This document shows, piece by piece, positions 10,278-52,014 of a stretch of DNA of 64,000 nucleotides. Source of the stretch: an uncultured Candidatus Saccharibacteria bacterium (GTDB taxonomy: Bacteria; Patescibacteriota; Doudnabacteria; UBA920); assembly GCA_964490395.1 (NCBI GenBank), contig CAZBAS010000004.1, forward strand, positions 30,615-94,614. The letters run 5' to 3'. A program made the position numbers and the translations under genes. The notes under the pieces are model-generated. The model searched no databases. It had not been told where the DNA came from and saw nothing but the letters and a program-made list of their open reading frames with translations. Within the stretch, counting starts at the first letter, position 1. Each line of letters starts with the position of its first letter.

Positions 10278-13034
10278 TTGTTTATGAATTTCATGAAGAT
10301 TAAAAAAGCTGCATCTATAGCAGTGGCACTCTTCCTCCTGGTAGCAACTACCATGGTGGGCGCTGCCCCAGCATTTGCTGCAGGACCAAACCTTATTGCT
10401 AACCCTTCCTTAGAAACCGCAGCAGGAGCCCTTCCTGCGAGCTGGCAAAAAGGTGGATTTGGTACTAACACTACAGTGTTTACCTATCCGGTAGCTGGCG
10501 TTGATGGTGCCAATGCAGCAAAAGTAGCCATGACTGCTCGCACTGGTGGCGATGCAAAATGGTTTTTTAACGATGTAGCTATAACTCCAGGAAAGAGCTA
10601 CACCTTTTCCGATCAGTACAAGTCTACCGTAGCAACCAAGCTTGTGGCTCGCTATACCTCCACCACAAATGTACTCAGCTACATAGACATGGGTAGCGTT
10701 GCTTCTTCTGCAGGCGCATGGAAAACATTTACCTATACATTTACTGCTCCTGCTGGCAGCGCCAAGATGACCGTATTCCACCTTATAGCTGCAGTAGGGG
10801 AACTTACGACCGATGCATATTCTTTAACTGAAAATACTGTTACGCCTCCTACAGATACCACTGCTCCAACTGTTGCCTTAACCGCACCTGCGGCAAATGC
10901 TACTGTGTCTAACACCGTAACCCTCAGCGCTACTGCTTCCGACAATGTTGGTGTAGCAGGCGTGCAATTTATAGTAGATGGCGCAAATGTAGGCGCTGAA
11001 GATACTACTGCTCCATACAGCATTTCTTGGGATTCCAAAACTGTTGCAAACGGCAGCCACACTGTTTCGGCAAAAGGCCGGGATGCTGCAGGGAACACTA
11101 CCACTACAACTCCTATTTCTATAACTGTATCTAATACCGTAACCCCTCCGGCAGATACTACTGCTCCAACGGTTACTCTGACCGCACCAGCTGCAAACGC
11201 AACAGTCACCGGCACTATAAATCTTACTGCTACTGCAACTGATAACGTTGCGGTAACGGGCGTGCAGTTTATAGTAGATGGCGCAAATTTTGGCAGCGAA
11301 CTTACTACAGCTCCATACACTGCTGCGCTCGACACGACTACCTTGACCAATGGTGCTCACACCATAGCGGTAGCAGCGCACGATGCAGCAAACAACTCCA
11401 AAACTACTACTGCTATTTCCGTAACGGTATCTAACACTGTAACCCCTCCAGCAACTAACCTTATTGCTAACCACTCTTTGGAGATGGCAACCGGAAGCCT
11501 GCCTACCAACTGGAGCAAGGGGAGCTGGGGTACAAACAACGCAACATTTACCTACCCAGTAGCTGGCGTAGACGGTACAAAAGCCGCTAAAGTTGCCATG
11601 ACTACGTACACCAATGGCGATGCCAAGTGGTTCTTTGATGATGTTGTCATAACGCCTGGTAAAAACTACACCTTCTCTGAGCAGTACAAGTCTACGGTGC
11701 CAACCACCGTTTTAGCTCGCTACACAAATGCAGATGCAAGCGTGGCATATGTTGAATATGCAAACCTTCCTTCTTCGGGCAACCAGTGGACTACGTTCTC
11801 TCATGAATTTACTGCTCCAGCTGGGGTTGCTAAAGTCACTGTATTCCATTTGCTCTCTGCAGTAGGGGAATTGACCATAGATAACTACACCATGGGTGAC
11901 CAGTCCAACAATACTTCCGCCTTCTTCTCACAGGGTATAGTAAGCTTCACGTTTGATGACGGTTGGATCTCCCACTACGACACTGTACTTCCTATACTCA
12001 ACGCAGCTGGTCTTAAAGGTTCGTTCTACATTATTACTGACCCAATGAACCAGGTGGTAGAGCCGAATAAAGTTCTAAACTCTGGGCTTGAAACAGATAG
12101 CGGCACTGGTACTCCAACCAACTGGACAAAGAGCAGCTGGGGTACGAACAATGCTGCGTTTACCTACCCAACTGCTGGTAAAACAGGCAATGGCGCAAAA
12201 GTTGCCATAACCTCCTACACCGATGGCGATGCAAAATGGTTCTTTGATGACATTGCTATAGTGGCAAATGCTCAGTATCGCTTCCGCGATTCCTACAAGA
12301 GCACAACCCCAACTACACTTACAGCTCGCTTTACCATGGCGGACAATACCGTTGCCTACCGCGACCTGGCAGTCTTGCCAAGCAGCAACAACAACTGGGC
12401 TACTACCGACATACCATTTACTGCTCCTGCAAACGTACAAAGCGTAACCATTTTCCACCACCTCGCAAGCGTAGGCGAACTCACTATAGACGATGCTTCA
12501 CTTACTCTGTACGCCATTTACATGAATCCAAGCCAGGTAAAGGATATGCAAGCAGCGGGACATGAAGTTGGTGGCCACACTAAGACACATCCTGACCTTA
12601 CTACCCTTACCGTACAACAGGCAACCGATGAAATTGTTGGTTCTCGCACTGCGCTTCAGAACATTGGCATAACGGTTAACACCATGGTGTATCCGTACGG
12701 TGCTGCAAACCCAACCATACAGCAGATAACCAAGAACGCAGGATATCTTGCTGCTCGCACGGTTGAAGCTGGGTATAACACTAAAGCAACCGATCACTAT
12801 GCGCTTCGTGTGCAGAACGTAGGTGTTGGTACTACCTTGGCCGATGTGCAAGGTTGGGTAACCACTGCCGCTACTGACCACACCTGGCTCATATTGGTAT
12901 TCCACCAGGTAGACCTGAGTGGCGATACCTATGGCACAACTCCAGCCCTGTTCCAGCAAATGGTAGATTACGTAAAAACTCAACCAGTACAGGTCCGCAC
13001 CATGGACGATGTACGAACAGAGCTCAATCCATAA
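10278..13034 (+). CDS. 918-aa secreted multidomain protein: 3x CBM4/9-like modules, 2x bacterial Ig-like modules and a NodB-type polysaccharide deacetylase (CE4) domain
   Basis: Signal peptide. Three copies of NLIANxSLE...WxKGxWGTNxxxFTYPxAG...AKVAxTxxTxGDAKWFFxDVxIxPGKxYTFS. Two copies of TTAPTVxLTAPAANATV...VQFIVDGAN (Big-like). CE4 motifs TFDDGW and HEVGGHTKTHP, with CBM 3 inserted between them. Confidence 0.7.
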   Translation: MFMNFMKIKKAASIAVALFLLVATTMVGAAPAFAAGPNLIANPSLETAAGALPASWQKGGFGTNTTVFTYPVAGVDGANAAKVAMTARTGGDAKWFFNDVAITPGKSYTFSDQYKSTVATKLVARYTSTTNVLSYIDMGSVASSAGAWKTFTYTFTAPAGSAKMTVFHLIAAVGELTTDAYSLTENTVTPPTDTTAPTVALTAPAANATVSNTVTLSATASDNVGVAGVQFIVDGANVGAEDTTAPYSISWDSKTVANGSHTVSAKGRDAAGNTTTTTPISITVSNTVTPPADTTAPTVTLTAPAANATVTGTINLTATATDNVAVTGVQFIVDGANFGSELTTAPYTAALDTTTLTNGAHTIAVAAHDAANNSKTTTAISVTVSNTVTPPATNLIANHSLEMATGSLPTNWSKGSWGTNNATFTYPVAGVDGTKAAKVAMTTYTNGDAKWFFDDVVITPGKNYTFSEQYKSTVPTTVLARYTNADASVAYVEYANLPSSGNQWTTFSHEFTAPAGVAKVTVFHLLSAVGELTIDNYTMGDQSNNTSAFFSQGIVSFTFDDGWISHYDTVLPILNAAGLKGSFYIITDPMNQVVEPNKVLNSGLETDSGTGTPTNWTKSSWGTNNAAFTYPTAGKTGNGAKVAITSYTDGDAKWFFDDIAIVANAQYRFRDSYKSTTPTTLTARFTMADNTVAYRDLAVLPSSNNNWATTDIPFTAPANVQSVTIFHHLASVGELTIDDASLTLYAIYMNPSQVKDMQAAGHEVGGHTKTHPDLTTLTVQQATDEIVGSRTALQNIGITVNTMVYPYGAANPTIQQITKNAGYLAARTVEAGYNTKATDHYALRVQNVGVGTTLADVQGWVTTAATDHTWLILVFHQVDLSGDTYGTTPALFQQMVDYVKTQPVQVRTMDDVRTELNP

Positions 13035-13040
13035 TCGTTA

Positions 13041-13078
13041 AAACTGCTTTTCCATGTGGAAGGCAGTTTTTTTTTATT
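13041..13078 (+). terminator. Intrinsic terminator after the 918-aa gene
   Basis: aaactgcttttcc-atgtg-gaaggcagttt followed by a T(9) run. Confidence 0.6.
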
Positions 13079-13286
13079 CTATCTATGTATGCAGTAGGGC
13101 ATCGGTGAAGTATGTGTGAAGCTCTGTGCGAAAGTAGACAAAAAGGTTTTACCTAAGCCTAAATGAATGGTTACGGATGTTATTGCGGTTTTTCTCCGAA
13201 AGTGGTATAGTAATATGTCTTATTGCTCAGCAATAAAACAGATATTTAGTTATTAACTGGCTTGGCCAACAAGTCATTATTACGCT

Positions 13287-15854
13287 ATGAAGTATTTAGT
13301 ATCGAGCCGCTTACGCACAGCTTTGGCAATTGCACTTTCGCTGGTCTTGGCGTTGCAAATGTCAGCTGCACGTATTGCAGTTGCCGCAGACGAAACCACT
13401 CCACTTACCGATGAAGTAGGGGAGCAGGGGAAAGGGTTTACTGACCTTAAATTATTTGTCCACCACAAAGAAGCAGACCTTGGTGTGACTAAAACAGTTG
13501 ACGAGCCTTTGCCAAACATAGGCGGTGCCATCACGTACAGCCTTAGTGTAACGAACTTTGGTCCCGATGACGCAACTGGTGTGGTGGTAACAGATGTGCT
13601 TCCCGAAGGAGTCACATTTGTTTCTGCAGATCCAGCTGCCGAGTACAACAGCGCCACCGGCGTGTGGACCATAGGTGACTTGGCAAATGGTGCTACTGCA
13701 CTGTTAGATATAAATGTAACTGCAAATATGGATGCAGGGGACACTGCTCCAGTAAACACTGCTACAGTCTCGTCCAATACCACAGACCCAAACATGGACA
13801 ACAACAGTGCCAGTGTTACGGTTGAAATTGGTATTCCATCTACGCCGGTAGATGAGCCTCTTGCTCCGTGTGTGGAAGGCCCTGCTCACGTAAACGAAGT
13901 CGTGGCGAGCGCACAAGGCACCCTGAACAATGGGAGCGCTATTACCGACAGTACTCGCACTAACCCAGCGAAAACACTTGGCGCTGCAGATGGTGTATTC
14001 TTCTCACTTGGAAAAAATGGCACAGTAACTGACTCCATGGCTGGCTATGCTGTAGATGTACCAGGGGTAGATGTAAGCATTCACGAAATTACCAATGGCC
14101 GCGACAGTTACCCAGAAGAGCGCGCTAAGGTTGAAGTGAGCCAAGACGGCTCTACGTGGTTTGTAGTTGGTACTGCAAGCGGTAAAGACGCGGGCGGCAT
14201 AAGCAGCTTCGACATAGCACCAACAGGACTTGGTTGGTTCACCATGGTTCGTGTTACCGATACTACTGACTTTACTATTCACGATGCAACTGCAGATGGG
14301 TTCGATTTGGATGCCATAGATGCAACCTATCAGTCGTGTGTATTGGTAGACCCAGCTAAAACCGCGACCTACGACAGCACTACCGGAACCCTGCACTACG
14401 CAATTTCCTGGAACGTTAAGGGTGGTACTGCAAATGTAGTGCTTACCGACGCGCTTCCAGCTGGTATAACCTACGTTGCTGGCTCTGCAGACAATGGTGG
14501 TACATACGATAATGGCACACGCACCCTAACCTGGAATCTTGGTTCCCATGTGGGCGGCGATAGTGGCGTTGTAAAGTTCGATGCCACGCTCGACGCAGCT
14601 TTGGCGCTTAACCAGTGGGCAAGCAGCGTAAAGTCCTTTACTCAAGGAAAAGATGCTGACCTCACTACTGCGGTAGATGCAGTCCGAAGCAACCCAGCAC
14701 AGGCCCTTGGCCCTGCTGAAACTTCTGGTGCACTTTACGATAACCCACTTCCAGACTACGTTGGAAAATTTGTATCTCTTGGATTTACCAACAACCCTAC
14801 GGGCGGCGAACTCGTGCTAGGTTTCGATCATGATATATATAATGGTCCTGGAAATGACCTGCAAATTTTTGAAGTTACGAGCGGCGACAACTACGGCAAT
14901 GAAAGTGCAAAAATTGCTGTAAGCAGCAACGACTCTACCTGGACCGATGTTGGTGTAGTAGTGCGCGATGGTGGTGTGGACCTTGGTTCAGTTACCAGCG
15001 CAAAATATGTTCGCATAACCGATACTTCTAACAAAGCTGAGTTTGAACCTACTGCAGACGCTTTCGATGTGGACGCAGTAAAAGCGCTGCAACTGGTACC
15101 AAACGTATGTAAAGTAGTAAACACCGCACAAGCAAGCTGGACCGTATTTACCGATAACGTCCCAACCACTGCAACATTGCCTGCAGTAGTAACCACTACT
15201 ATAAACCAAAGTGCCTGCGACAACGCCGGTGGTGGTGGCGGTAACGGTGGCGGCAATGGTGGTTCAAATACAGGTACTGGTTCTATCACTGGTTTGGTGT
15301 TTAACGATGCAAACAACAATGCTGCTTTAGACGAAGGTGAATCTTCACTTTCAGGCTGGGTAGTATACCTCGATACAAATGACAATGGCGTGCTCGATGG
15401 CGGCGAAGTTTCCAAAACAACAGCATCCCCATACTTATTTACTGGTCTTGCCGATGGTACCTATACTGTTCGTGAAGTACTGCAGTCTGGCTGGACACAG
15501 ACACTGCCAACCGCAGGAAACAGCTTTAAGTACGTAGTAGCTATTTCTGGCGGCAACGCGGTTACCAATAAAGACTTTGGTAACTTTGTAGCAACAAGCG
15601 GTGGCACAGGTGGTAGTGGTGGTGGTGCTAATGGTGGTGGTGGAACTGTCCCTGCTCCACAAATCCTGGGCGACTCCACAAACACTCCTAACGCAGACAC
15701 AGGTTCTGGCATGGGCGGCGGTGCTCCTACCGGACTAGTGCTAAGCGCAACCGAGCTCCCTCGTACCGGAAACGGCAGCGCAGTACTCCTTCTTGCACTT
15801 TTGGTAGGTGGTAGTGCAGCATTTGCACTTCGCAAGCTACGACAATCGTTGTAA
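13287..15854 (+). CDS. 855-aa LPXTG cell-wall-anchored surface protein with DUF11 repeat and SdrD-B/CnaB-like domains
   Basis: Signal peptide. DUF11-like segment (GVTKTVDEPLPNIGGAITYSLSVTNFGPDDATGVVVTDVLPEGVTFVS). Gly-rich linkers. C-terminal LPRTG, hydrophobic stretch, then RKLRQSL. Confidence 0.7.
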   Translation: MKYLVSSRLRTALAIALSLVLALQMSAARIAVAADETTPLTDEVGEQGKGFTDLKLFVHHKEADLGVTKTVDEPLPNIGGAITYSLSVTNFGPDDATGVVVTDVLPEGVTFVSADPAAEYNSATGVWTIGDLANGATALLDINVTANMDAGDTAPVNTATVSSNTTDPNMDNNSASVTVEIGIPSTPVDEPLAPCVEGPAHVNEVVASAQGTLNNGSAITDSTRTNPAKTLGAADGVFFSLGKNGTVTDSMAGYAVDVPGVDVSIHEITNGRDSYPEERAKVEVSQDGSTWFVVGTASGKDAGGISSFDIAPTGLGWFTMVRVTDTTDFTIHDATADGFDLDAIDATYQSCVLVDPAKTATYDSTTGTLHYAISWNVKGGTANVVLTDALPAGITYVAGSADNGGTYDNGTRTLTWNLGSHVGGDSGVVKFDATLDAALALNQWASSVKSFTQGKDADLTTAVDAVRSNPAQALGPAETSGALYDNPLPDYVGKFVSLGFTNNPTGGELVLGFDHDIYNGPGNDLQIFEVTSGDNYGNESAKIAVSSNDSTWTDVGVVVRDGGVDLGSVTSAKYVRITDTSNKAEFEPTADAFDVDAVKALQLVPNVCKVVNTAQASWTVFTDNVPTTATLPAVVTTTINQSACDNAGGGGGNGGGNGGSNTGTGSITGLVFNDANNNAALDEGESSLSGWVVYLDTNDNGVLDGGEVSKTTASPYLFTGLADGTYTVREVLQSGWTQTLPTAGNSFKYVVAISGGNAVTNKDFGNFVATSGGTGGSGGGANGGGGTVPAPQILGDSTNTPNADTGSGMGGGAPTGLVLSATELPRTGNGSAVLLLALLVGGSAAFALRKLRQSL

Positions 15855-15895
15855 AACGGTTGCCTCTATGGAGCATGTAACATGTAACAAAAGAT

Positions 15896-15928
15896 ACGGA
15901 AAGCTTTGCTTTCCGTATTTTATTTTCT
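15896..15928 (+). terminator. Intrinsic terminator after the LPXTG gene
   Basis: acggaaagc-tttg-ctttccgt followed by attttatttt. Confidence 0.6.
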
Positions 15929-15929
15929 T

Positions 15930-16010
15930 GTTACATGCTTTTTGCTACATGTTACATGTTACATGCTCTACGCTACATGCTCTATGTTACATAGTATGCT
16001 GCATTGCTGT
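15930..16010. repeat. Array of ttacatg/ctacatg heptamer direct repeats
   Basis: tgttacatgctttttgctacatgttacatgttacatgctctacgctacatgctctatgttacat. Inverted copies catgtaacatgtaac lie just upstream of the terminator. Confidence 0.55.
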
Positions 16011-16151
16011 TTAATGCTGAATTTGGTACTGTTAAGATATTACGCCAAACGTTACGAGGCCTTTATGTCGGCAATTAAAAGACCTCTGGCTCGATCACCC
16101 TACTGGCTTTCGACGTGATAGACGTGAAGACGTTCAACGCCACACCTTTCT

Positions 16152-16874
16152 ATGCCAAAAGTTACCGTTACTAATCTTTCAAGACGAACTCCAAGCGCTG
16201 CTGCGCCACGACGAAAAGTTGCGGCCGAGCCCACAATGCCCGCGCCAAAAGAAAAAATGACGCTAAAAGCAGCACTGAAGCTGCTTATCTGGGTATGCCT
16301 ATTAAGTGGTGTGTGTTTAAGTCTGATGAATTGGGGGTTTGTTTCTGCGCGCGTCTCCTTCTTCTTTCACAAGCCCAATGCTGCTACGGTTATTCAGCCT
16401 AAAACCGAGGCAACAGCACCTTCAGAAGGGGCGTGGCCTAAAGATACATTGGCCATTCCGAGCCTCGGCATTAGTGCTCCGGTTATATACGATGTAGCGC
16501 AAAATGAAGAAGCATTTCAAGTAGCATTACAGAGCGGCGTGGTACACTATCCAGGTAGTAGTTTGCCGGGCGAAGTTGGGAATGTCTACATATTTGGCCA
16601 CTCTTCGGACTATGCATGGAGCAAGGGGAGTTATAAATCTGTATTTGCGGTGTTGCCGAAAATAGAAAAAGGTGCGGAAATAAAGCTCACCGACAGCAAA
16701 GGTTTTATGTACACATATATAGTTACGAAGCAGTTCGTAGTGGGGCCAAAAGACGTAAGTGTGCTCAGCCAGGACACCAAAGGTAAGCGCATACTTACAG
16801 TACAAACCTCATACCCCATTGGCACTGCCTTAAAACGATACGTGGTACAGGCCGAACTAAGACAGTCAGACTGA
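16152..16874 (+). CDS. Sortase-family (class E-like) transpeptidase homologue with Ser at the canonical catalytic Cys position
   Basis: N-terminal TM. HYPGSSLPGEVGN and FGH motifs. ILTVQTSYP...KRYVVQAEL aligns to class-E LLTLTTC...R, with Ser codon TCA at about 16809..16811. Confidence 0.6.
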   Translation: MPKVTVTNLSRRTPSAAAPRRKVAAEPTMPAPKEKMTLKAALKLLIWVCLLSGVCLSLMNWGFVSARVSFFFHKPNAATVIQPKTEATAPSEGAWPKDTLAIPSLGISAPVIYDVAQNEEAFQVALQSGVVHYPGSSLPGEVGNVYIFGHSSDYAWSKGSYKSVFAVLPKIEKGAEIKLTDSKGFMYTYIVTKQFVVGPKDVSVLSQDTKGKRILTVQTSYPIGTALKRYVVQAELRQSD

Positions 16875-35376: not shown

Positions 35377-35492
35377 AATGTCTAATTTCTAATATCTAAT
35401 TCCTAATGTCCAGATACCTTTTTGTCTTTCATCCAACTTCGCTAAAGTTATGTCGGACAAGTTAGACCTTAGAAATTAGGAATTAGATATTT
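35377..35492. repeat. AT-rich palindromic repeat, family A, copy 2
   Basis: aatgtctaatttctaatatctaattcctaatgtcc ... gaccttagaaattaggaattagatattt. Confidence 0.6.
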
Positions 35493-36069
35493 GTATTTTA
35501 CTAAGTAATCTTCGCAAAACTTCTGCTTCGACTTCTACGTCAGTAAGGGCGTCGTGAAAATTACCAGTGGTTGTTATACCCAACAACGCTGCCATATCGG
35601 ATAATCCGAAGCCAATTGGTTTTTTGGGGTTTAGGTTTGTACGTGATTCACTACTCCAGTACAAATACGCTAAAGTCCAAATATCAAAACTATGGAACTC
35701 GTACGGAAGGCGTTTGCCCATCTTTTCATAGCTTTGACGCAAAAAGCCAGTATCAAACCAAGCATTGTATGCGGTCAGCAGGACATCGCCTACAGGAAAT
35801 TGCTCCTCAAAATCGCCCAGAGCACGCTCGATAGGCGGAGCGCTCTTTAGAGTTTCTATGCTAATTTTATTCACTTCCATGGCCTCAGGCAACCAGTTGC
35901 CCCACTGCTTTGGTTGGACATACGAAGAAAACCTAGAAACTTCTTCTAGAGTATCTTTGCGAAGCCTAATGGCGGCAATCTGAATAATTTCAGCATGCGC
36001 TATATCGAGCCCCGTACTTTCTATATCAAATATCACTAGGTCTCTGGTAAACATAATTTGAGGCGACAT
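35476..36069 (-). CDS. DEDD-family 3'-5' exonuclease (DnaQ/epsilon-like)
   Basis: Exo I FDIESTGLD, plus later Exo II and III-like acidic and H residues. Confidence 0.7.
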   Translation of the reverse strand: MSPQIMFTRDLVIFDIESTGLDIAHAEIIQIAAIRLRKDTLEEVSRFSSYVQPKQWGNWLPEAMEVNKISIETLKSAPPIERALGDFEEQFPVGDVLLTAYNAWFDTGFLRQSYEKMGKRLPYEFHSFDIWTLAYLYWSSESRTNLNPKKPIGFGLSDMAALLGITTTGNFHDALTDVEVEAEVLRRLLSKIQISNS

Positions 36070-36174: not shown

Positions 36175-36711
36175 TTACACTTCTTTAAGAATTTTCCGCA
36201 ATACTTCAGCCTGCAATTTTACTCGCTCAAATGCATCGTATGGGTTGCTAATGCGAAGGTGGAAATGATCAAGTAAGGTATGAAGTGAAGGAATTTTTTT
36301 TAGGCCTATGCGCATACCAAAGGTGTAGTATAGAGTCCATAAATCTATAACGGAAAGATCGTACGGAAACGCTGTAGCCTGTTTTCGAAACATTTGCCTA
36401 AAAGAAAACAGCTGACTTGCACTGGGTACTGCAAGGGTCGCGTCTGGGCGAAAACGAGTCGTTACTTCTTTTATAAAATCGAGCGGCTTGGGGGAGTTTT
36501 GAAGCACTGAAATGTCTACGCGCACGCTTGCTGCATGGCCTTGCAGGGTCTCGGAAAGGAGGCTGTTTCGCACATAGGTCGAGTAGTTGGCTTTTTCCAA
36601 TAGGTTGTCTTTGTCCAGCAACACAGCACCAAACTGCACAACAACGTCGCGCTCTACATCGGGCCCGCTAGTTTCTAAGTCTATAAGAAGGATGTCTTTG
36701 ATAAAACGCAT
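36175..36711 (-). CDS. DEDD-family 3'-5' exonuclease paralogue
   Basis: LLIDLETSGPD Exo I motif. Tandem with the previous gene. Confidence 0.6.
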   Translation of the reverse strand: MRFIKDILLIDLETSGPDVERDVVVQFGAVLLDKDNLLEKANYSTYVRNSLLSETLQGHAASVRVDISVLQNSPKPLDFIKEVTTRFRPDATLAVPSASQLFSFRQMFRKQATAFPYDLSVIDLWTLYYTFGMRIGLKKIPSLHTLLDHFHLRISNPYDAFERVKLQAEVLRKILKEV

Positions 36712-41227: not shown

Positions 41228-41331
41228 GTCTTCTATGGCTTCTCAAAACCGCACTTTGTGCGGTTTTGTTTTCATATGCTTAATTCATAATTCATGCTTC
41301 TTGATTCAAGTTTCATGGTATAATTAATGCA

Positions 41332-42633
41332 ATGAAATTGAGCGTAAATAACCGCTTTTGGAGCAGCATCTTACTCGCAGTGACCCTGGTAGGGGCGACT
41401 GTTGGTTTTGGCTATGTACGAGTACACGCTGCGGACGTAGACGAAATCAAATTCAAGCAAACACAGTTACAAGAAAAACTCGACGCTTTAAATAAACAGA
41501 TAAGCAACTACCAAAGCCAAATTAGCACCACCCAAAAACAGGCTGCGTCACTAAAGAATGAAATATTTATATACGACACACAGATTAAATCTACTGAGCT
41601 GGCCATAGATGCTAAGCAGACCGAAATGGAAGATACGAATTTGCAAATTAACGAATTGCAAATTCAAATAGACAGGCGCGTTGCAGAAATAGAAGATAAT
41701 AAAAAAGTTTTAAAAGAACTTATCATAGAACTGAACGAGCTTGGTGATAATTCCTTCGTACAGCTCGCTCTGGGTACGAGCAATTTTTCGGCGTTCCTTG
41801 ACGACCTTCAGTACACAAATAACGTCCAAGACAAAATTTATCAAATAGTCCAGAACATAAAGCTTGTTAAGAGTAAGCTCGAAGATCAACAGAACGACCT
41901 CAAAGTACAGCTTAAAAAACTGCAGGATCTTACCGACCAGCTCAAAGCCACCCAAAGCTCTCTCGAGGCGCAGGAGCAGGATAGACAAAATCTTTTGGCC
42001 AAAACCAAGGGCGTTGAGAAAAACTATCAAAAGTTACTCACGAACAGCAAGAGCGAGCAGGCTGACTTGCAAAAAGAAATGGACGACCTTGATGCACAGG
42101 TTCGTGCCAAGCTCGGAAACAAAACCATTACTGCAAAAAAGGGAAGTCTGGTCATGCCTATGAAAGGCATACTAACACAAGGTTACGGCAATACCGGCTT
42201 TACTTCGCTCGGGTACTCTTTTCACAATGGACTGGATGTAGCTGCCCCAGCAGGCACACCTATTTACGCTGCCCAAGACGGTACGGTAAACGGCTGTGAT
42301 ACTGGCGACGCATCGTATGGAAACTGGTGCAGTATAAAACACAATATCCAAACTACAAACGGCAGTGTATGTGTAATTACCCTTTACGGTCACATGCGGT
42401 CATTTAAATTAAAAGTGGGCCAGACCGTAAAACAAGGAGATTTAGTTGGGTACGAAGGCAACACTGGCAACACCACAAGACTACTCTACGGTCCGGATAG
42501 GGGATACCACTTGCATTTTACCGTGTTTGATTGCGAAGGCTTTGGCATATCACAGGGAAAATATTCTAAGACATACGGACCATATACCGTACCATACGGA
42601 TACACCTATAACCCGAAAGATTTCTTACCATAA
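41332..42633 (+). CDS. M23-family peptidoglycan endopeptidase with long N-terminal coiled coil (EnvC/NlpD-like)
   Basis: Signal/TM, then about 230 aa of coiled coil, then GLDVAAPAGTPIYAAQDGTV...LYGHM...HLHFTV M23 motifs. Confidence 0.8.
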   Translation: MKLSVNNRFWSSILLAVTLVGATVGFGYVRVHAADVDEIKFKQTQLQEKLDALNKQISNYQSQISTTQKQAASLKNEIFIYDTQIKSTELAIDAKQTEMEDTNLQINELQIQIDRRVAEIEDNKKVLKELIIELNELGDNSFVQLALGTSNFSAFLDDLQYTNNVQDKIYQIVQNIKLVKSKLEDQQNDLKVQLKKLQDLTDQLKATQSSLEAQEQDRQNLLAKTKGVEKNYQKLLTNSKSEQADLQKEMDDLDAQVRAKLGNKTITAKKGSLVMPMKGILTQGYGNTGFTSLGYSFHNGLDVAAPAGTPIYAAQDGTVNGCDTGDASYGNWCSIKHNIQTTNGSVCVITLYGHMRSFKLKVGQTVKQGDLVGYEGNTGNTTRLLYGPDRGYHLHFTVFDCEGFGISQGKYSKTYGPYTVPYGYTYNPKDFLP

Positions 42634-42660: not shown

Positions 42661-43590
42661 ATGCGAAACTCGTACACCACATTTTTTAAAAAAGCATTCC
42701 TTGCGTTCAGCTTGTCGGCCTCACTCTTGCTTCCCCATGCTGCCCTTGCAGCAGCAGTAGACTTACCGTGCACACCCTCCCAAGCGCCAGCAACAGTCGC
42801 AGGACAAGACACCTCTACCCCAAACAACGACCTCTTTGACTGCATTAACCGCCTCTACAAATACGCCCTGGTTATATCGAGTATTGCGGGTGTATTTATG
42901 ATTATGCTTGGCGGGTACATGTATATCTTCTCAGGTGGCAATGACAAGAAGGTAAGCACAGCAAAAAGGTTTATTACTACGTCACTCCCGGGTATAGCCG
43001 TGCTGCTAACGGGGTTTTTACTTCTGAAACAGATCAACCCGAGCTTATTACAAATTAAAAGCATTACTCCGGCACAAATAGCGCAGTCTGATTGGGCCAT
43101 CCTTCCTCACGACGGCGGATTGGGAGGCGGTGGTGGAACTGGTGGTGGAGGCGGGGGAAATGTAGGCACAGGAAAATGCGAGCCAGTCACTAGTGGCCCA
43201 GCATCTGTCGCCAATTTGCAAGGTACTTGTTTTGGCGCAAACGCAGCAAAAGCATCAAGCATTGCAAACCTTGAAAGTAACGGCAACCCGGCAAGGCATG
43301 GCGACAAATGCGTTGATGGGAACTATGCTTCATGGGGTCTATTCCAAATCAATATTTCAGCCAATACCATGGCAGGATTAAATTGCCCCAAGGCATTTGA
43401 TGTGCCGGCACGAGCAAGTACGCTCTTGTCCGGGGGAGTATACAACTGCCATGTTATCAACAAACCACTCTATGACCAGTGTGTGGCTGCGGCAACAAAT
43501 GAATCCACCAATATTGAAGCAGCGTGCCGCATATCTAACAACGGGACCAGATGGGGCGCATGGAGCACTAACAAAACTTGTAAATTTTAG
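42661..43590 (+). CDS. Secreted protein: VirB2/TrbC-pilin-like two-TM N-terminal module + Gly linker + lysozyme-like (SLT/Rpf-like) C-terminal domain
   Basis: Signal peptide and two TM helices (YALVISSIAGVFMIMLGGYMYIF; SLPGIAVLLTGFLLLKQI). C-terminal LESNGNPARHGDKCVDGNYASWGLFQIN resembles the SLT/Rpf ES..GN...G.GL.Q motif. Confidence 0.5.
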   Translation: MRNSYTTFFKKAFLAFSLSASLLLPHAALAAAVDLPCTPSQAPATVAGQDTSTPNNDLFDCINRLYKYALVISSIAGVFMIMLGGYMYIFSGGNDKKVSTAKRFITTSLPGIAVLLTGFLLLKQINPSLLQIKSITPAQIAQSDWAILPHDGGLGGGGGTGGGGGGNVGTGKCEPVTSGPASVANLQGTCFGANAAKASSIANLESNGNPARHGDKCVDGNYASWGLFQINISANTMAGLNCPKAFDVPARASTLLSGGVYNCHVINKPLYDQCVAAATNESTNIEAACRISNNGTRWGAWSTNKTCKF

Positions 43591-43623
43591 ACCTTGAAGA
43601 GCCATAATTAACTTTAAATACTT

Positions 43624-44097
43624 ATGTTCGAAAATAATAAAAATATTATCATTGGCGTAATTGTTTTTGTTATGTTGGTGGTCATTGCGGCGCTCGCATA
43701 TGCTGCGTTCAGTAATCCAAGTAAGACGGCGACGCCATTACCCACAAATGCGAACCCCACCGCAAACTCAAACACAGTGGCCATCTCGACCCCGAAAGGT
43801 GCTGTGGTAGTAAACAACTTTACCCAGAACGTACTTTCAAAGACAGAGTCATCTATGACCATCGCCGATACAAACGACTATCAAATTGTCTATTTTCAAA
43901 AAGAGGGGAGTTTCCTTATTACTCTTGCATCCCAGCCAGCAACTAGCGCGCGTATAAAAGCAGAAACAGCCTTTTTGAGCATATTAAACATAAACAAAGA
44001 ACAAGCCTGCAAGCTTACAGTGGCCCTGAAGATACCTTACTCAGTAGATGAGAACCTCGCAGGTCCCGATTACGGTTTAAGCTTTTGCCCTCACTAA
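43624..44097 (+). CDS. Hypothetical secreted protein
   Basis: N-terminal TM/signal only. Confidence 0.4.
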   Translation: MFENNKNIIIGVIVFVMLVVIAALAYAAFSNPSKTATPLPTNANPTANSNTVAISTPKGAVVVNNFTQNVLSKTESSMTIADTNDYQIVYFQKEGSFLITLASQPATSARIKAETAFLSILNINKEQACKLTVALKIPYSVDENLAGPDYGLSFCPH

Positions 44098-44147
44098 ACG
44101 ATGTACTGATAATGCAGCGCTTTAGAAAATAAAATGAACATAAACCT

Positions 44148-45020
44148 ATGCAGCACTTTAAAATAAAAAAAATTATATTCGCCGCTATGGTAGCAGCCAC
44201 CTGTTTGCTTCCCCACGCAGCCTTTGCCGCAGCAGTGGACTTACCATGCACACCCTCCCAAGTACCAGCAACAGTTGCCGGACAAGATACCGCAGCACCG
44301 AACAATGATCTATACAACTGCATTAACCGCCTCTACAAATACGCCCTGGTTATATCGAGCATAGCTGGTGTATTTATGATTATGCTTGGCGGGTACATGT
44401 ATATTTTCTCCGGAGGTAATGACAAGAAGGTTAGCACAGCAAAAAGTTTTATTACTACGTCTCTTCTGGGTATAGCAGTATTGCTGACCGGGTTTTTACT
44501 TTTGAAACAGATTAACCCCAGTTTGACTACGGTCAAAAGTATAACGCCGCAACAAATTGACTATCAAGAGTGGTATGTAATGAGGGCAGAAGATGGCATA
44601 GCCCAGGTAAACACCGGCCTATCGAATAGCGGGGCAGCAGTGGCAGCCCAGTGCCCGGGAGGGCAACTCGTGGATATCCCGCAAGGGGAGTTTCAGCAGT
44701 ACGATAAAAATAAGACATGCCCTACAGTCTTGGAGGCGCTACGGAAATTAAAAACTGCCGCCACTGCAGCTGGAATATCATTTAAAGTAAACGACTCGTA
44801 CGGCCCAGCGCATAAGAGTTCGTGCCATAAAGAATCAGGAACTTGCGTAGATATTGGCCTCACTGGATCAACTACATGGGACCAGCTTTGTAAAGTAGTA
44901 AACTCCACGGGATTATTTAAAATATTAAACGAATCGGGAGGCAATACGCCAAATTGCGGGACCTTTATAGCAACAAGTAAATCCACGGCCCCACATATTC
45001 ATTTAAATTTATTGAACTAG
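44148..45020 (+). CDS. Paralogue of 42661..43590: same pilin-like N-terminal module + peptidase M15 (VanY/L,D- or D,D-peptidase)-like C-terminal domain
   Basis: N-terminal ~135 aa nearly identical to the upstream paralogue. C-terminal SSCHKESGTCVDIGL (compare M15 SxHxxGxAxD) and TAPHIHLNL (HxH). Confidence 0.5.
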   Translation: MQHFKIKKIIFAAMVAATCLLPHAAFAAAVDLPCTPSQVPATVAGQDTAAPNNDLYNCINRLYKYALVISSIAGVFMIMLGGYMYIFSGGNDKKVSTAKSFITTSLLGIAVLLTGFLLLKQINPSLTTVKSITPQQIDYQEWYVMRAEDGIAQVNTGLSNSGAAVAAQCPGGQLVDIPQGEFQQYDKNKTCPTVLEALRKLKTAATAAGISFKVNDSYGPAHKSSCHKESGTCVDIGLTGSTTWDQLCKVVNSTGLFKILNESGGNTPNCGTFIATSKSTAPHIHLNLLN

Positions 45021-45097
45021 GAAACGATACCACGGAGGCAATCCAATACTGATACCAGTAACTCTTAATTATAGCCACCCGTGTATATATTAATTTA

Positions 45098-45134
45098 GAC
45101 CAGCAAAAGCTGGTCTTTCTATTTCAAATTTTTT
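45098..45134 (+). terminator. Intrinsic terminator after the 44148..45020 gene
   Basis: gaccagc-aaaa-gctggtc followed by tttctatttcaaatttttt. Confidence 0.6.
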
Positions 45135-45739
45135 ACATGGTGGAGCCTTGCTCGTACACCCATCAAGAACCTGGACATATGGCGGGAGCCCTAGCTAAGG
45201 ACTTATAAGTGTGTGCATTCGGAACTGGCACCTGCAGCCTTGCGAGCAGAGTGAAGATCTAAACCATCCAAACACCGAAGACACACAGCAATTGAACCGA
45301 TCCAACAGTATTATATAAAAGCAATACTGAATTACTTTAGAAATGCGAAATAGTACTACCAACGGGCGTGCTATATTAAAAGTAATGCTAGAGCATCAGA
45401 CGTGGAAGTTTATAAACGGGATTTAAACGAGAAGATATAGCATGCAGGTTGTATAACAAAGCAGGAGAGCGAGGGAACAAATAAAATCGATCATATATAC
45501 ATAATCAAAAGAAGTAACCACAAACCAGTTCAAAGCGCTTTTTTGTACATACTGTGTCGTACAAGATACATTGTACGACACAACAACATTAGCAAAACCA
45601 GCCTTTAAAGTACTACCCTCCGTGGTATCCGGATACACCCAGCTATCAGATCTGCCATGCTACTCTTGCATACGCCGGGCCATACATTCCGCCACACACA
45701 CTGCACTCTAATTGCTGCGTACTAGATTTCTGCCGCAGC

Positions 45740-45773
45740 AAAAAAATAAAACCAGACAGAGGAGTCTGGTTTT
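45740..45773 (-). terminator. Intrinsic terminator after the 45829..46272 gene (minus strand)
   Basis: aaaccagac-agaggagt-ctggttt with an A(9) tract on the plus-strand upstream side (a U-run on the minus-strand transcript). Confidence 0.55.
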
Positions 45774-45828
45774 ATGATATCAGGACGGTGACATTTTATA
45801 CGTGTGTATCCCCTACCTTAGAAAGTTT

Positions 45829-46272
45829 CTACTTACTAGACTTTCTAAACCCGGCCGCCTTAGCTTCTTCTTCGGTTTTAAAACACGCAACAGGTTTAGT
45901 AACCCGGCCATAGAACGTACCACCTTTTACGTGATATATTTTGCTCTTGGTACCTTTTACAATGCAGGGACCGTTCGTAGTCGCGCCCAACACCAATGGA
46001 GCTGCCACCTCGGCTACAGCTACCGCAGGACTCGCAGCCTGTTCGGGCGTTGCCGCCTCGGTCTTGCTCTCCGTAGCGGGCGGAGACTTCTCTGCTGCTG
46101 GTGTCTGCTTTGTGCTATAATTTGAATAATTACTGGAAGTTTTATGCGGAGAGCTGCGAGTTAGCTTCCCCACTCCGACACCGACAAAAAAGATAACCAC
46201 AAACGCGGCAACGCATATTAGTGCGCTCCGATGATCTTTGCCCCAGGCTTTGATCTTTTCATATGTAATCAT
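45829..46272 (-). CDS. Hypothetical secreted protein with N-terminal TM, low-complexity linker and conserved-looking Cys-containing C-terminal motif
   Basis: C-terminus CIVKGTKSKIYHVKGGTFYGRVTKPVACFKTEEEAKAAGFRKS. Confidence 0.45.
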   Translation of the reverse strand: MITYEKIKAWGKDHRSALICVAAFVVIFFVGVGVGKLTRSSPHKTSSNYSNYSTKQTPAAEKSPPATESKTEAATPEQAASPAVAVAEVAAPLVLGATTNGPCIVKGTKSKIYHVKGGTFYGRVTKPVACFKTEEEAKAAGFRKSSK

Positions 46273-50295: not shown

Positions 50296-51237
50296 CTATA
50301 CTCGCAAATACTTCCGGATAGCCAACGTGCTAGAAACAAAGCTCAGTATAAGCGCTACGACCAATAAAGCCAAGGACAGGAGCGGTAAATTAAACACTGT
50401 TGCCGGAGCAAGTGCAATTAATCCCCCACCCTGACTATTTGTGCTGCCATTTACCAGAACAGTAATGGCAGGTTCGATCTTTGTAAACAAAAGCGCGAGG
50501 AGTCCAGTGGTAATGGCACTGGCAACCACAGAATACAATAAAGATTCTATCAGAAACGGCCCACGAATGTACCAGTTAGTTGCTCCAACAAGCCGCATAA
50601 TCTCTACTTCTTCACGGCGATTGTAAATAGTTAAGGTAATGGTGTTAAAAATTACCAACACCGCAATAATAGAAAATATTACAACGAGCGCAATTCCACT
50701 AGTAACAATGAACCTTAAGACTTTCCCGAGGCGCTCAATGAGCAACCGGTTATCCTCAAAGTTAACTTTGCTAATGCTGTCTTTATACGTACCACCTTGA
50801 AGTGAGGCGGCTATATCTGCATAGTCATCTAAGTTTGCTGCTTTAATTTGCAAAGTAGCTGGGAGTGGGTTGTCTGTAAGCTCTGCCAAGGAGTCTAGGA
50901 TGAGAGAGTCCTTTGCATGTTTAGTCTTAAAGCTCTCAAGCGCATTTGCAGCTGAAGTATAGGTAACGCTACTAACTTTAGGGTTTCGCTGAAGGTCCGT
51001 TTTAAAATCGTTTATTAGACTTTCGGCCACGCCAGTTTTAAAGTACACGCTTATGTCTACTCGATCTCGAATGCTTGCCACCGAGTACTTGGTTACTCCA
51101 AACAGTAAAATGAGTACGCTAAAAATAATCAGGGTAATAACCATGACCATGGTAGCAGCTGCAGAAAGCCATATATTGCGCCAAAAATTTACGAATCCGG
51201 CTTTTATTACTCTAAAAAAACTTATTGAGTCAAACAT
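50296..51237 (-). CDS. ftsX: Cell-division permease FtsX
   Basis: 4-TM FtsX topology, directly downstream of ftsE. Confidence 0.85.
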   Translation of the reverse strand: MFDSISFFRVIKAGFVNFWRNIWLSAAATMVMVITLIIFSVLILLFGVTKYSVASIRDRVDISVYFKTGVAESLINDFKTDLQRNPKVSSVTYTSAANALESFKTKHAKDSLILDSLAELTDNPLPATLQIKAANLDDYADIAASLQGGTYKDSISKVNFEDNRLLIERLGKVLRFIVTSGIALVVIFSIIAVLVIFNTITLTIYNRREEVEIMRLVGATNWYIRGPFLIESLLYSVVASAITTGLLALLFTKIEPAITVLVNGSTNSQGGGLIALAPATVFNLPLLSLALLVVALILSFVSSTLAIRKYLRV

Positions 51238-51250
51238 AGTATGAAGAAAT

Positions 51251-51346
51251 GCCTAATTCCTAATGTCTAATTTCTAATATCCGGGAATTTCTTATGTCTT
51301 TTGATTAGACATTGGAAATTAGAAATTAGACATTTCCTATAACTTA
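51251..51346. repeat. AT-rich palindromic repeat, family A, copy 4
   Basis: gcctaattcctaatgtctaatttctaatatcc ... gattagacattggaaattagaaattagacattt. Confidence 0.55.
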
Positions 51347-52014
51347 TACCTTCCTTTTTCTTGCTCAAGAACTACCCGACCACCTTCAACGGTAATAACT
51401 CTTTTTTGTATACGATTTACTAAATCTGCCGCATGGGTAGCCAGAATAACGGTTGTGCCGAGTTTATTTATCTTCAAAAGTAAATCTAGTACTTCGGCAG
51501 CGTTTACTTCGTCTAAGTTGCCCGTAGGCTCGTCTGCCATAAGCAGGGCTGGGCGGTGGGCCAAGCTTCGCGCTATCGCAATACGCTGTCGCTCTCCCCC
51601 GGACATCTCATGAGGGAAATTATGCTTCTTATGAAGCAGGCCAACGAGCTCCAAAATTTTGGGTACTTCTTTATCTATACGGTCTCTCCGGTGCCCACTA
51701 ACTTCCATAGCAAATGCCACATTCTCAAAAGCTGTCCTCCGTGGCAGTAATTTTATATCCTGAAATACCATACCTATTTTTCTTCGAAGGTACGGCAAGT
51801 CGCTTGTTTTGACCTGGGCAATGTCTATGTCATCTATAAGCACACGCCCGTCATCTGCACGCTCTTCGCCAGTAATAAGCTTGAGCAGCGTAGACTTACC
51901 AGCGCCTGAGAGTCCCACTATTGAGACAAATTCACCATGATTAATCTCAAGGTTAATGCTGGCAAGTGCCTTAGTATTTCCGTAATATTTTGCTACAGAT
52001 TCAAATCTAATCAT
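51337..52014 (-). CDS. ftsE: Cell-division ATP-binding protein FtsE
   Basis: Walker A GLSGAGKSTLL, signature MSGGERQRIAIAR, Walker [13 protein letters not shown]. Confidence 0.9.
   Translation of the reverse strand: MIRFESVAKYYGNTKALASINLEINHGEFVSIVGLSGAGKSTLLKLITGEERADDGRVLIDDIDIAQVKTSDLPYLRRKIGMVFQDIKLLPRRTAFENVAFAMEVSGHRRDRIDKEVPKILELVGLLHKKHNFPHEMSGGERQRIAIARSLAHRPALLMADEPTGNLDEVNAAEVLDLLLKINKLGTTVILATHAADLVNRIQKRVITVEGGRVVLEQEKGRYKL

Follow-up and report, generated by a model that had tools for sequence, protein, structure and literature searches.

Paired pilin-like proteins with putative lysozyme-like and Hedgehog-related zinc-peptidase domains, encoded beside an M23 peptidase in an uncultured Patescibacteria genome

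What might a bacterium do with two neighbouring genes that begin alike, with a pilin-like membrane module, and end in two unrelated domains, both apparently directed at peptidoglycan? The question is raised by a stretch of 64,000 nucleotides (hereafter the window) from contig CAZBAS010000004.1 of an uncultured Candidatus Saccharibacteria bacterium. In this window, gene A (42661..43590, + strand; 309 amino acids, aa) encodes a pilin-like N-terminal module (N-module), a Gly-rich linker, and an SLT_3 lysozyme-like domain, and gene B (44148..45020, +; 290 aa) encodes a pilin-like N-module joined to a putative zinc peptidase of the Hedgehog/DD-peptidase-like (HhDD, or LAS) type. The answer that we favour, and that we hold to be rather probable, is that the two products are a glycosidase and a zinc peptidase that are held by a pilin anchor, hydrolyse peptidoglycan outside the cytoplasm, and act with a co-transcribed M23 endopeptidase.

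The two open reading frames (ORFs) lie where a first-pass annotation, made from the letters alone, had placed them, and they show the similar N-termini and unrelated C-termini that it had described. BLASTP aligns only residues 9-155 of A with residues 6-152 of B (112/147 identities, 76%; E 8e-79), and no mutual similarity is detected between the C-termini. At the DNA level, the identity in 45-nt windows is 82-93% between 42835..43015 and 44313..44493, dropping to about 50% at the end of the module. The N-module of A (42661..43095, +; aa 1-145) was delimited by hydropathy, alignments, and a match to PF18895 (T4SS_pilin; E 9.4e-4 at aa 58-116), and the paralogous one of B (44148..44573, +; aa 1-142) by a PF18895 match (E 3.8e-4), the blastn break point, and the gene-conversion signal discussed below. 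Hydropathy discloses three hydrophobic segments in each protein, i.e., the signal peptide followed by two transmembrane (TM) helices with a short loop that had been proposed for both. The signal peptide closes in an AxA-type site (HAALAAA in A, HAAFAAA in B) and the helices are linked by the loop SGGNDKKVSTAK. In A the segments span residues 12-33, 65-90, and 104-123, so that the module consists of a signal peptide (about aa 1-30), a Cys-containing mature N-terminus, TM1 (about 65-90), the loop SGGNDKKVSTAKR, TM2 (about 104-123), and, at its end, a conserved KQINPSL...W junction. Loop SGGNDKKVSTAKR would face the cytoplasm: given its Lys-rich character, the positive-inside rule would put the two ends of the protein, with the C-terminal domains, on the outer side of the membrane. 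The first-pass annotation had also called for a search for more paralogues with other C-termini; in the 64-kb window, tblastn and the module HMM found no copy of the N-module or of either C-domain beyond A and B. A word-indexed protein search gave one match for the N-module of A and none for the C-domain of B, and an exact-sequence look-up of B returned no record either.

The N-module appears, from profile and family comparisons, to be of the VirB2-like T4SS_pilin (PF18895) type of Patescibacteria, as its earlier description as VirB2/TrbC-pilin-like had implied (T4SS, type IV secretion system). The orthologues in a related locus, L002, score 29.9 bits (gene 1, above the PF18895 threshold) and 26.5 bits (gene 2), and B also shows a trace TrbC/VirB2 match in Pfam. 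The nearest database relative (P0001), 63% identical, has a precomputed PF18895 match. A profile made from 25 diverse modules retrieved 331 proteins, mostly PF18895-type; the best 120 of these are nearly all short (110-280 aa) PF18895 proteins, and those among the 120 that bear a name from their source are called 'pilin' and come from Patescibacteria. In the AF2 model of B, the module forms a helical hairpin (helices 54-86 and 92-122) with a weak Foldseek match to the Aeropyrum (archaeal) conjugation pilus 8dfu (probability 0.47). For A, B, and the small protein encoded between them, NCBIfam and PHROGs yielded nothing of use beyond one weak match to a 'pilin-like conjugal transfer protein' of a Mycoplasma integrative and conjugative element (E 0.076), and a metagenome scan with the close N-module subfamily returned distant pilins only. 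The size differs from that of stand-alone pilins (about 110-200 aa), A having 309 aa and B 290 aa, each with an enzyme domain at the C-terminus.

Distant relatives of the module adjoin VirB4-like ATPases in three loci (L004, L006, and L009), and in L004 about 4 kb separate such an ATPase from a pilin-SLT-like fusion. In another lineage of the candidate phyla radiation (CPR; L020, 1777..4522), the gene of a pilin-HhDD protein (P0013) directly follows one for a T2SSE/PilB-type ATPase, and a class A penicillin-binding protein is encoded nearby; this fusion is therefore also found beside machinery of the type IV pilus/type II secretion system type.

The C-terminal domain of A (43237..43569, +; aa 193-303) matches SLT_3 (PF18896, 'lysozyme like domain') with E 1.4e-7 and 32.3 bits, against a cut-off of 27; the orthologue in the related locus L001, whose SLT_3 domain is 94% identical, reaches 35.9 bits. 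The residues LESNGNP...WGLFQIN cited by the first-pass annotation are present and comprise the E-S motif (LES, with Glu205 as candidate catalytic residue) and the GLxQ motif (GLFQ at 226) of lysozyme-like transglycosylases, which are presumably catalytic here, by analogy with family-1 lytic transglycosylases. Of the proposed 'SLT/Rpf-like' nature, the SLT part is borne out by a score above the Pfam cut-off, and for the Rpf part no Rpf-type family was found among the Pfam matches of A at E <= 1. A phmmer search of A against PDB sequences returned Gly-linker noise only.

The corresponding domain of B (44640..45017, +; about aa 165-290), taken as a single sequence, matched nothing in Pfam, PHROGs, NCBIfam, or the PDB (phmmer). 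An exhaustive HMMER search disclosed 44 relatives, mostly proteins of about 300 aa that carry it C-terminally. In the numbering of B, their alignment is invariant at H227, G231, C233, D235, and E262 and nearly so at a last His, H285 (of H283-I-H285), and four Cys are conserved. The residues on which an M15-like peptidase had been proposed, SSCHKESGTCVDIGL...TAPHIHL, are present (H227, D235, and H283-I-H285). Both the His and the Asp of the putative zinc pair are invariant in the family; in the HxH motif, the second His is conserved in at least 90% of the members, a few of which have Asn in place of the first, and an insertion of about 20 residues with a conserved Cys lies between the Glu and HxH.

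The family alignment allowed the B domain to be modelled by AF2 with a pLDDT >90, and the top Foldseek matches of the model in the PDB, although weak (E about 0.13, probability 0.87), were VanY and LdcB, i.e., M15B zinc peptidases. Searched against PDB sequences, the family profile recovered the N-domains of Sonic, Indian, and Desert Hedgehog (best E 1.5e-6). In the HMMER alignment, the family pattern CH...G.C.D stands opposite LHYEGRAVD of Sonic Hedgehog (Shh), which holds the zinc-binding His and Asp, and the invariant E262 of B, in LNE, is aligned with the Glu of Shh YYE (catalytic Glu177); the roles of the zinc ligands and catalytic residues in Shh have been described (PMC6027127). When 33 family members were compared with Pfam, only sub-threshold matches were obtained, to HH_signal in three (best 0.018) and to Peptidase_M15_3 in one (0.01); the curated HH_signal, Peptidase_M15_x, and VanY models gave no match for B and none above threshold in the 33 members. 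The Hedgehog profile match, the VanY and LdcB fold matches, and the sub-threshold HH_signal and M15_3 matches together lead us to regard the B domain as a branch of the LAS/Hedgehog-DD-peptidase superfamily that has no Pfam model. A canonical M15 assignment at the family level was rejected, since the H-x6-D spacing is absent and no Pfam M15 model reaches threshold; the nearest sequence relatives with structures are the Hedgehog N-domains, and what is retained of 'M15-like' is the superfamily. In some relatives (P0010, P0016, and P0019; e.g., L018 8001..9524) a second C-terminal domain of about 200 aa, lacking a Pfam match, follows the Hedgehog-like one; it carries a canonical-looking SDH(G/S)xGxAxD ... 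H motif and is possibly a second LAS/M15-type peptidase.

Directly upstream of A, the M23 peptidase noticed in the first reading is encoded at 41332..42633 (+; 433 aa; coiled coil plus Peptidase_M23, PF01551, E 1.4e-22; NCBIfam M23 endopeptidase families), with intact HxxxD (HNGLD at 298) and HxH (HLH at 393) motifs. Its N-terminus is a long coiled coil (many Pfam coiled-coil matches), an EnvC/PcsB-like architecture, and the genes for FtsX (50296..51237, -) and FtsE (51337..52014, -), named from their sequence and from the Pfam labels of the syntenic genes in L018, lie 5-7 kb from the operon. This architecture, together with the intact catalytic motifs and the nearby FtsEX genes, suggests that the M23 protein is an active division hydrolase under FtsEX control in this lineage.

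Between A and B lies a small gene (43624..44097, +; 157 aa) whose product begins with a TM helix or signal anchor and continues through a low-complexity linker into a beta-rich domain of about 100 aa. It has no family match in Pfam, PHROGs, or NCBIfam, and its single-sequence AF2 model (pLDDT 57) gave no fold match. It is 79% identical to its counterpart in L001; the proteins encoded at the same place in L002/L003 and L018 (211 and 177 aa, respectively) are alike in architecture and share no detectable sequence similarity with it. The gene is missing in L014, which has one pilin gene. It is also missing in L015, where the SLT domain is fused into a single gene, and this second absence speaks, if weakly, against immunity as a necessary role; the product may be a spacer-encoded partner, an assembly factor, or an inhibitor. 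Terminator-like hairpins after gltX (41244..41268, +; 11-bp stem, 6 GC pairs, then a T-run) and after B (45097..45116, +; 8-bp stem, 5 GC pairs, T-rich tail) are the probable upstream and downstream operon boundaries. The scan places no further hairpin terminator on the + strand within this interval, and gaps of 27-50 nt separate the four genes, which suggests that the M23 gene, A, the small gene, and B form a single operon.

The same slot can be recognised in at least seven distinct loci, i.e., the window and six metagenome-derived ones (L001, L002, L014, L015, L016, and L018; L019, an identical copy of L018, was not counted separately), two of these six being labelled Candidatus Saccharibacteria. 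The order is gltX, the M23 gene, the pilin-hydrolase gene(s), then a convergent sunset-domain gene and a methyltransferase gene, and the M23 gene precedes the pilin-hydrolase gene in 7/7 loci. The content varies: the window has pilin-SLT_3, the 157-aa small protein, and pilin-HhDD; L001 has pilin-SLT_3, a 157-aa small protein, and pilin-C39_2; L002 (and apparently the short contig L003) has pilin-SLT, the 211-aa small protein, and pilin-HhDD; L018 has pilin-SLT, the 177-aa small protein, and a pilin-HhDD with an extra domain; L014 has pilin-HhDD only; L015 has a single pilin-HhDD-SLT gene; and L016 has pilin-HhDD followed by the contig end. The neighbourhood of L018 matches that of the window throughout, from RNase T to FtsX, even though its M23 protein is only 57% identical; the operon is an old and stable chromosomal unit and no variable island. 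An origin from a mobile element or phage was rejected in view of the unremarkable GC content, the lack of PHROG matches, and the conserved chromosomal synteny.

PF18895 is also carried by 38/40 proteins with a B-type domain, and it is for this reason that the pilin-HhDD fusion looks like a conserved design maintained by selection. The other heads found on the module are SLT in gene 1 of L002 (Pfam) and in gene 1 of L018 (a weak precomputed Pfam label), an SLT-like head in L004 (recognised through BLAST similarity only, Pfam giving no match), Peptidase_C39_2 in gene 2 of L001 (E 3.6e-13), and NlpC/P60 in P0151; one protein of the B-type domain set has a YkuD match. P0008, the product of the L015 gene, unites pilin, HhDD, and SLT in one protein, thus linking the glycosidase and peptidase activities that would be divided between A and B.

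The exchange of heads has left a clear trace. The window and L001 are collinear from the M23 gene to position 44573, the end of the N-module of B, and the homology is back at 45741 (blastn). The enzyme head and its 3' flank have been replaced as a cassette, HhDD in one locus and Peptidase_C39_2 in the other. The left boundary of the cassette is the junction motif K.I.P.QI....W. The idea of a constant N-terminus with swappable C-termini is thus confirmed, both by the SLT_3, SLT, Peptidase_C39_2, NlpC/P60, and Hedgehog-like heads placed on the module and by a break that falls exactly at its junction.

The two N-modules of a genome, in turn, resemble each other more than their positional orthologues: the A-type and B-type modules are 78-81% identical within a genome (window, L001, L002) versus 59-65% between those lineages, and the L018 modules are 58% identical to each other versus 28-45% to all others. 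Given the conserved gene order and the orthologous C-domains, this pattern indicates that the two modules evolve in concert. In the window, an amino acid identical in A and B is encoded by the identical codon in 70/107 cases, versus 49/121 for the orthologues W_A and L1_A (Fisher p = 2e-4), and the share is 26-50% for every other N-module pair; the longest exact DNA match between A and B is 43 nt, and it is <=23 nt for the other pairs. The codon identity and the exact match point to a recent gene conversion between the N-modules of this window. Compared with the M23 protein, the N-modules evolve much faster, and so does the small protein.

The comparisons show the domain identities, the conservation of the fusion, the synteny, the cassette replacement, and the concerted evolution. 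On these grounds, the following mechanism can be proposed, in which the topology, the catalysis, the operon status, the association with a pilus or T4SS, and the wall attacked are inferred. A and B would be exported by Sec and their signal peptide cleaved; the VirB2/TrbC-type two-helix hairpin (PF18895) would span the membrane, its short Lys-rich loop facing the cytoplasm, a topology in which the C-terminal enzyme would hang from a flexible linker on the outer side of the cell. There, the SLT_3 lysozyme-like domain of A would cut glycan strands, the LAS-type zinc peptidase of B would cut peptide stems or cross-links, and the coiled-coil M23 protein would contribute an endopeptidase. The pilin module would anchor the enzymes where VirB2-like pilins gather, and might even allow their entry into a pilus, so that glycan- and peptide-cleaving activities could work together. 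The A/B set might in this way supply the VirB1-like wall-opening function missing from most Patescibacteria T4SS loci. Recombination in the conserved module would both swap the C-terminal enzyme cassettes between lineages and homogenise the N-modules within a genome. The wall attacked may be the cell's own during division, as the FtsEX-type M23 protein and the housekeeping context favour; it may be the wall to be crossed by a pilus or T4SS, as favoured by the choice of a pilin anchor, the concerted evolution, and the context of L004; or it may be that of a host, as favoured by the head swapping and the fast-evolving exposed parts.

Several observations weigh against this mechanism. The PF18895 scores of A (19.6 bits) and B (20.9 bits) stay below the cut-off of 26.6 (E 4e-4 to 9e-4), and the N-module profile found no relative of known structure in the PDB, where its only matches were spurious ones to farnesyl-diphosphate synthases. 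The His-Asp distance in B (H227-x7-D235; x7 to x13 in the family, through an insertion after the His) is not the H-x6-D spacing. No VirB4/VirD4/VirB6-type domain was found among the scanned ORFs of the 64-kb window, which include every ORF of at least 400 aa, and the T4SS link is for this reason indirect here. Moreover, no VirB2-type pilus has been demonstrated in any CPR bacterium (PMC12857230), a globular C-terminal domain of 150 aa may be incompatible with dense pilus packing, and the architecture of the M23 protein with the nearby FtsEX genes fits a pure cell-division role equally well.

The last point leads to a different explanation, that is, that the locus encodes housekeeping autolysins, the cell's own set for division and daughter separation, with the M23 protein controlled by FtsEX (as EnvC, PcsB, and CwlO are), A and B as tethered helpers, and the hairpin as a recycled anchor with no pilus or T4SS role. 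This explanation, which we judge rather unlikely, draws on the coiled-coil plus M23 architecture, on the proximity (5-7 kb) of the FtsX and FtsE genes, in surroundings that recur in L018, on a chromosomal setting (gltX, pdf, CTP synthase, and ribosomal protein genes) that stays the same between lineages with M23 proteins only 57% identical, and on the absence of T4SS genes among the scanned ORFs of the window. It leaves unexplained why the PF18895 module, and not a generic anchor, is present in 38/40 proteins with a B-type domain and why the N-modules evolve in concert in three lineages; the rate of evolution is also far higher in the N-modules and the small protein than in the M23 protein, and a pilin-SLT-like fusion lies near VirB4 in L004. 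EnvC, PcsB, CwlO, and RipC are FtsEX-controlled coiled-coil hydrolases, and the likeness to them concerns the M23 gene only, with its coiled coil, its hydrolase domain, and FtsE/FtsX encoded nearby; to our knowledge, FtsEX-hydrolase systems have no co-transcribed pilin-fused partner hydrolases.

It might also be imagined that A and B are host-directed weapons similar to polymorphic effectors, with the pilin module delivering or displaying swappable lytic domains on a T4SS pilus, the swaps tracking the chemistry of the host wall, and the small protein serving as immunity protein or chaperone. A conserved N-module, alternative C-domains, and a break at the junction, which are traits of polymorphic toxins, are indeed found here: at least five hydrolase-type C-domains occur on one module, and the difference between the window (HhDD) and L001 (Peptidase_C39_2) is a clean cassette replacement at the junction. 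The fast evolution of the N-module and small protein is that expected of exposed or co-evolving parts, the type of the small protein tracks that of the lysozyme (157 aa beside SLT_3, 211 aa beside SLT), and a T4SS and pilin array is essential for epibiotic growth in a Saccharibacterium (PMC10633639). However, no immunity-like ORF follows B or the C39 variant, and the 800-bp gap after B (45021..45828) holds no orphan cassette, no cassette remnant, and no credible ORF (the largest, read from the other strand, has 71 aa). L015 and L014 lack the small gene, the repertoire is narrow, most complete loci keeping a glycosidase and the same peptidase, and the locus is stably chromosomal and not in a variable island; in addition, CPR cells have their own peptidoglycan, so self-targeting is equally possible. 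We therefore consider this explanation improbable, and the polymorphic-toxin cassette logic put forward by the first-pass annotation is not supported for a locus with no downstream immunity gene or orphan cassette, a fixed housekeeping slot across lineages (M23 57% identical), and a recurring glycosidase-peptidase pair in place of an open-ended repertoire.

There is a similarly slim chance that a more far-reaching scheme is right as a whole, in which a CPR VirB2-type pilus or a T4SS-associated membrane platform would carry the enzymes. A and B would then be minor pilins with exchangeable heads (lysozyme-like, Hedgehog-related zinc peptidase, C39 or NlpC/P60 cysteine peptidase), the heads might drill the wall of the host bacterium at the contact site, gene conversion would keep both armed pilins compatible with each other and with the pilus, and recombination at the conserved junction would swap the heads as hosts change. 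If true, this scheme would represent a new mode of delivery for lytic enzymes and the first role assigned to the essential T4SS pilins of Patescibacteria.

Set beside known systems, pilin-anchored hydrolases of the kind that we favour would combine features of several of them. Patescibacteria T4SS loci contain arrays of VirB2-like pilins linked to virB4 and mostly lack VirB1, a role that other glycosidases may fill; the arrays are tandem, sometimes broken by a non-pilin gene, and their members have a mean identity of 25% and a maximum of 54% (PMC12102498). Saccharibacteria cannot grow as epibionts without the T4SS and its VirB2-like pilins, whose function has been described as unknown (PMC11665869, PMC10633639). 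A and B share with these arrays (PMC12102498; PMC10633639) the signal peptide, the two TM helices, the INP motif, the phylum, and the interruption by one non-pilin gene; they differ from the array members, which are short, stand-alone, and usually near virB4, in that each bears a hydrolase domain of 150 aa, their modules reach 76-80% identity and show signs of gene conversion, and the locus lies beside the M23 gene and gltX.

The VirB1-type hydrolases of monoderm conjugation, such as TraG of pIP501 and PrgK of pCF10 (PMC12102498), similarly combine a glycan-cleaving with a peptide-cleaving activity and are membrane-anchored and extracytoplasmic, and P0008 mirrors their two-domain design. Their anchor, however, is a simple TM segment, their peptidases are CHAP or NlpC/P60, and their genes lie inside the T4SS operon, whereas A and B have a VirB2-like pilin anchor, a LAS/Hedgehog-like peptidase, split activities, and no adjacent T4SS gene. 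CwlT of ICEBs1 is another hydrolase of this kind. The enzyme types fit VirB1-like proteins; a location in a T4SS cluster is not observed among the scanned ORFs of the window but is observed for the pilin-SLT-like fusion of L004.

As regards the peptidase, B shares with the Hh/DD-peptidase family (ShhN, the bacterial Hh-like proteins, and the M15A DD-carboxypeptidase, PMC6027127; VanY and LdcB of M15B) the His/Asp/His triad, the Glu aligned with Shh E177, the HxH motif, and the C-terminal position of the domain in a bacterial protein with a membrane anchor. It departs from that family in the His-Asp spacing of 7-13 and not 6, the Cys-bearing insertion of about 20 residues, the four conserved Cys, the low identity to Shh, and the lack of a Pfam HH_signal or M15 match at threshold. 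Polymorphic toxins and the bacteria-killing T4SS of Xanthomonas, whose effectors include peptidoglycan hydrolases, resemble the A/B locus in having a conserved delivery or anchor module, exchangeable lytic C-domains, and a sharp homology break between strains; A and B have instead a pilin-like module at the N-terminus, where those systems use a XVIPCD signal at the C-terminus or a stalk of the Rhs/CDI type, and their locus is fixed, housekeeping-like, and without an adjacent immunity gene or orphan cassette arrays.

The surroundings of the operon comprise gltX, pdf, CTP synthase, and ribosomal protein genes, and the remainder of the window contains housekeeping or envelope genes; no tRNA gene or Rfam family reached threshold across the whole 64 kb. 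The convergent gene downstream (45829..46272, -) encodes a membrane-anchored protein of 147 aa whose C-terminal sunset domain matches NCBIfam NF051437 (E 1.9e-12) and bears the label PF27542 ArfC in related loci; the gene is always convergent to the operon, and NCBIfam has sunset variants fused to ribosomal proteins. Between it and B lies a near-perfect inverted repeat (45554..45581) with 12-nt arms, GTGTCGTACAAG-ATACAT-TGTACGACAC, the sole copy in the window, which is kept downstream of the pilin-hydrolase operon in L001 (9030..9057), L015 (3102..3129), and L014 (2336..2363), with a half-site in L002 (7161). The intergenic DNA around it is not conserved, and the RNA fold has a z-score of -3.8; since it has no U-tract, it is not a canonical terminator. 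Lying between convergent genes, it may serve as an operator or a site of protein binding, or may form a structured RNA.

Upstream of the peptide deformylase gene lie two tandem paralogous exonuclease-like genes (35476..36069, - and 36175..36711, -), in a neighbourhood conserved in related genomes, whose counterpart in L016 and L018 is labelled RNase_T. Far from the operon, two large putative surface proteins (10278..13034, + and 13287..15854, +), one with Big_7 repeats and a polysaccharide deacetylase domain, the other with DUF11, SdrD_B, and an F5/8-type-C-like domain, are followed by a sortase (16152..16874, +); the region 10278..16874 is a probable cluster for wall-anchored adhesins and wall modification.

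The component families are all known, and the accession numbers PF18895 and PF18896 are adjacent; in the literature searched, no published account was found of pilin-hydrolase fusions, of the M23 operon, of the concerted evolution, or of the Hedgehog-like family. If A and B were plain division autolysins, the locus would still provide a useful annotation, of modest interest; as it stands, it concerns mainly specialists of CPR bacteria and of T4SS, the function being the part that we infer. For the Hedgehog/DD-peptidase family, the relatives of B would add a bacterial branch that lacks a model and has a Cys-rich active-site region with variant spacing. In these reduced genomes, evolution seems to act at the level of the module, the anchor changing in concert and the enzyme being exchanged as a cassette. 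Glycan- and peptide-cleaving domains borne on pilins would represent a testable candidate for the way in which a pilus or channel might pass through the peptidoglycan of monoderm cells, be it their own or that of a host.

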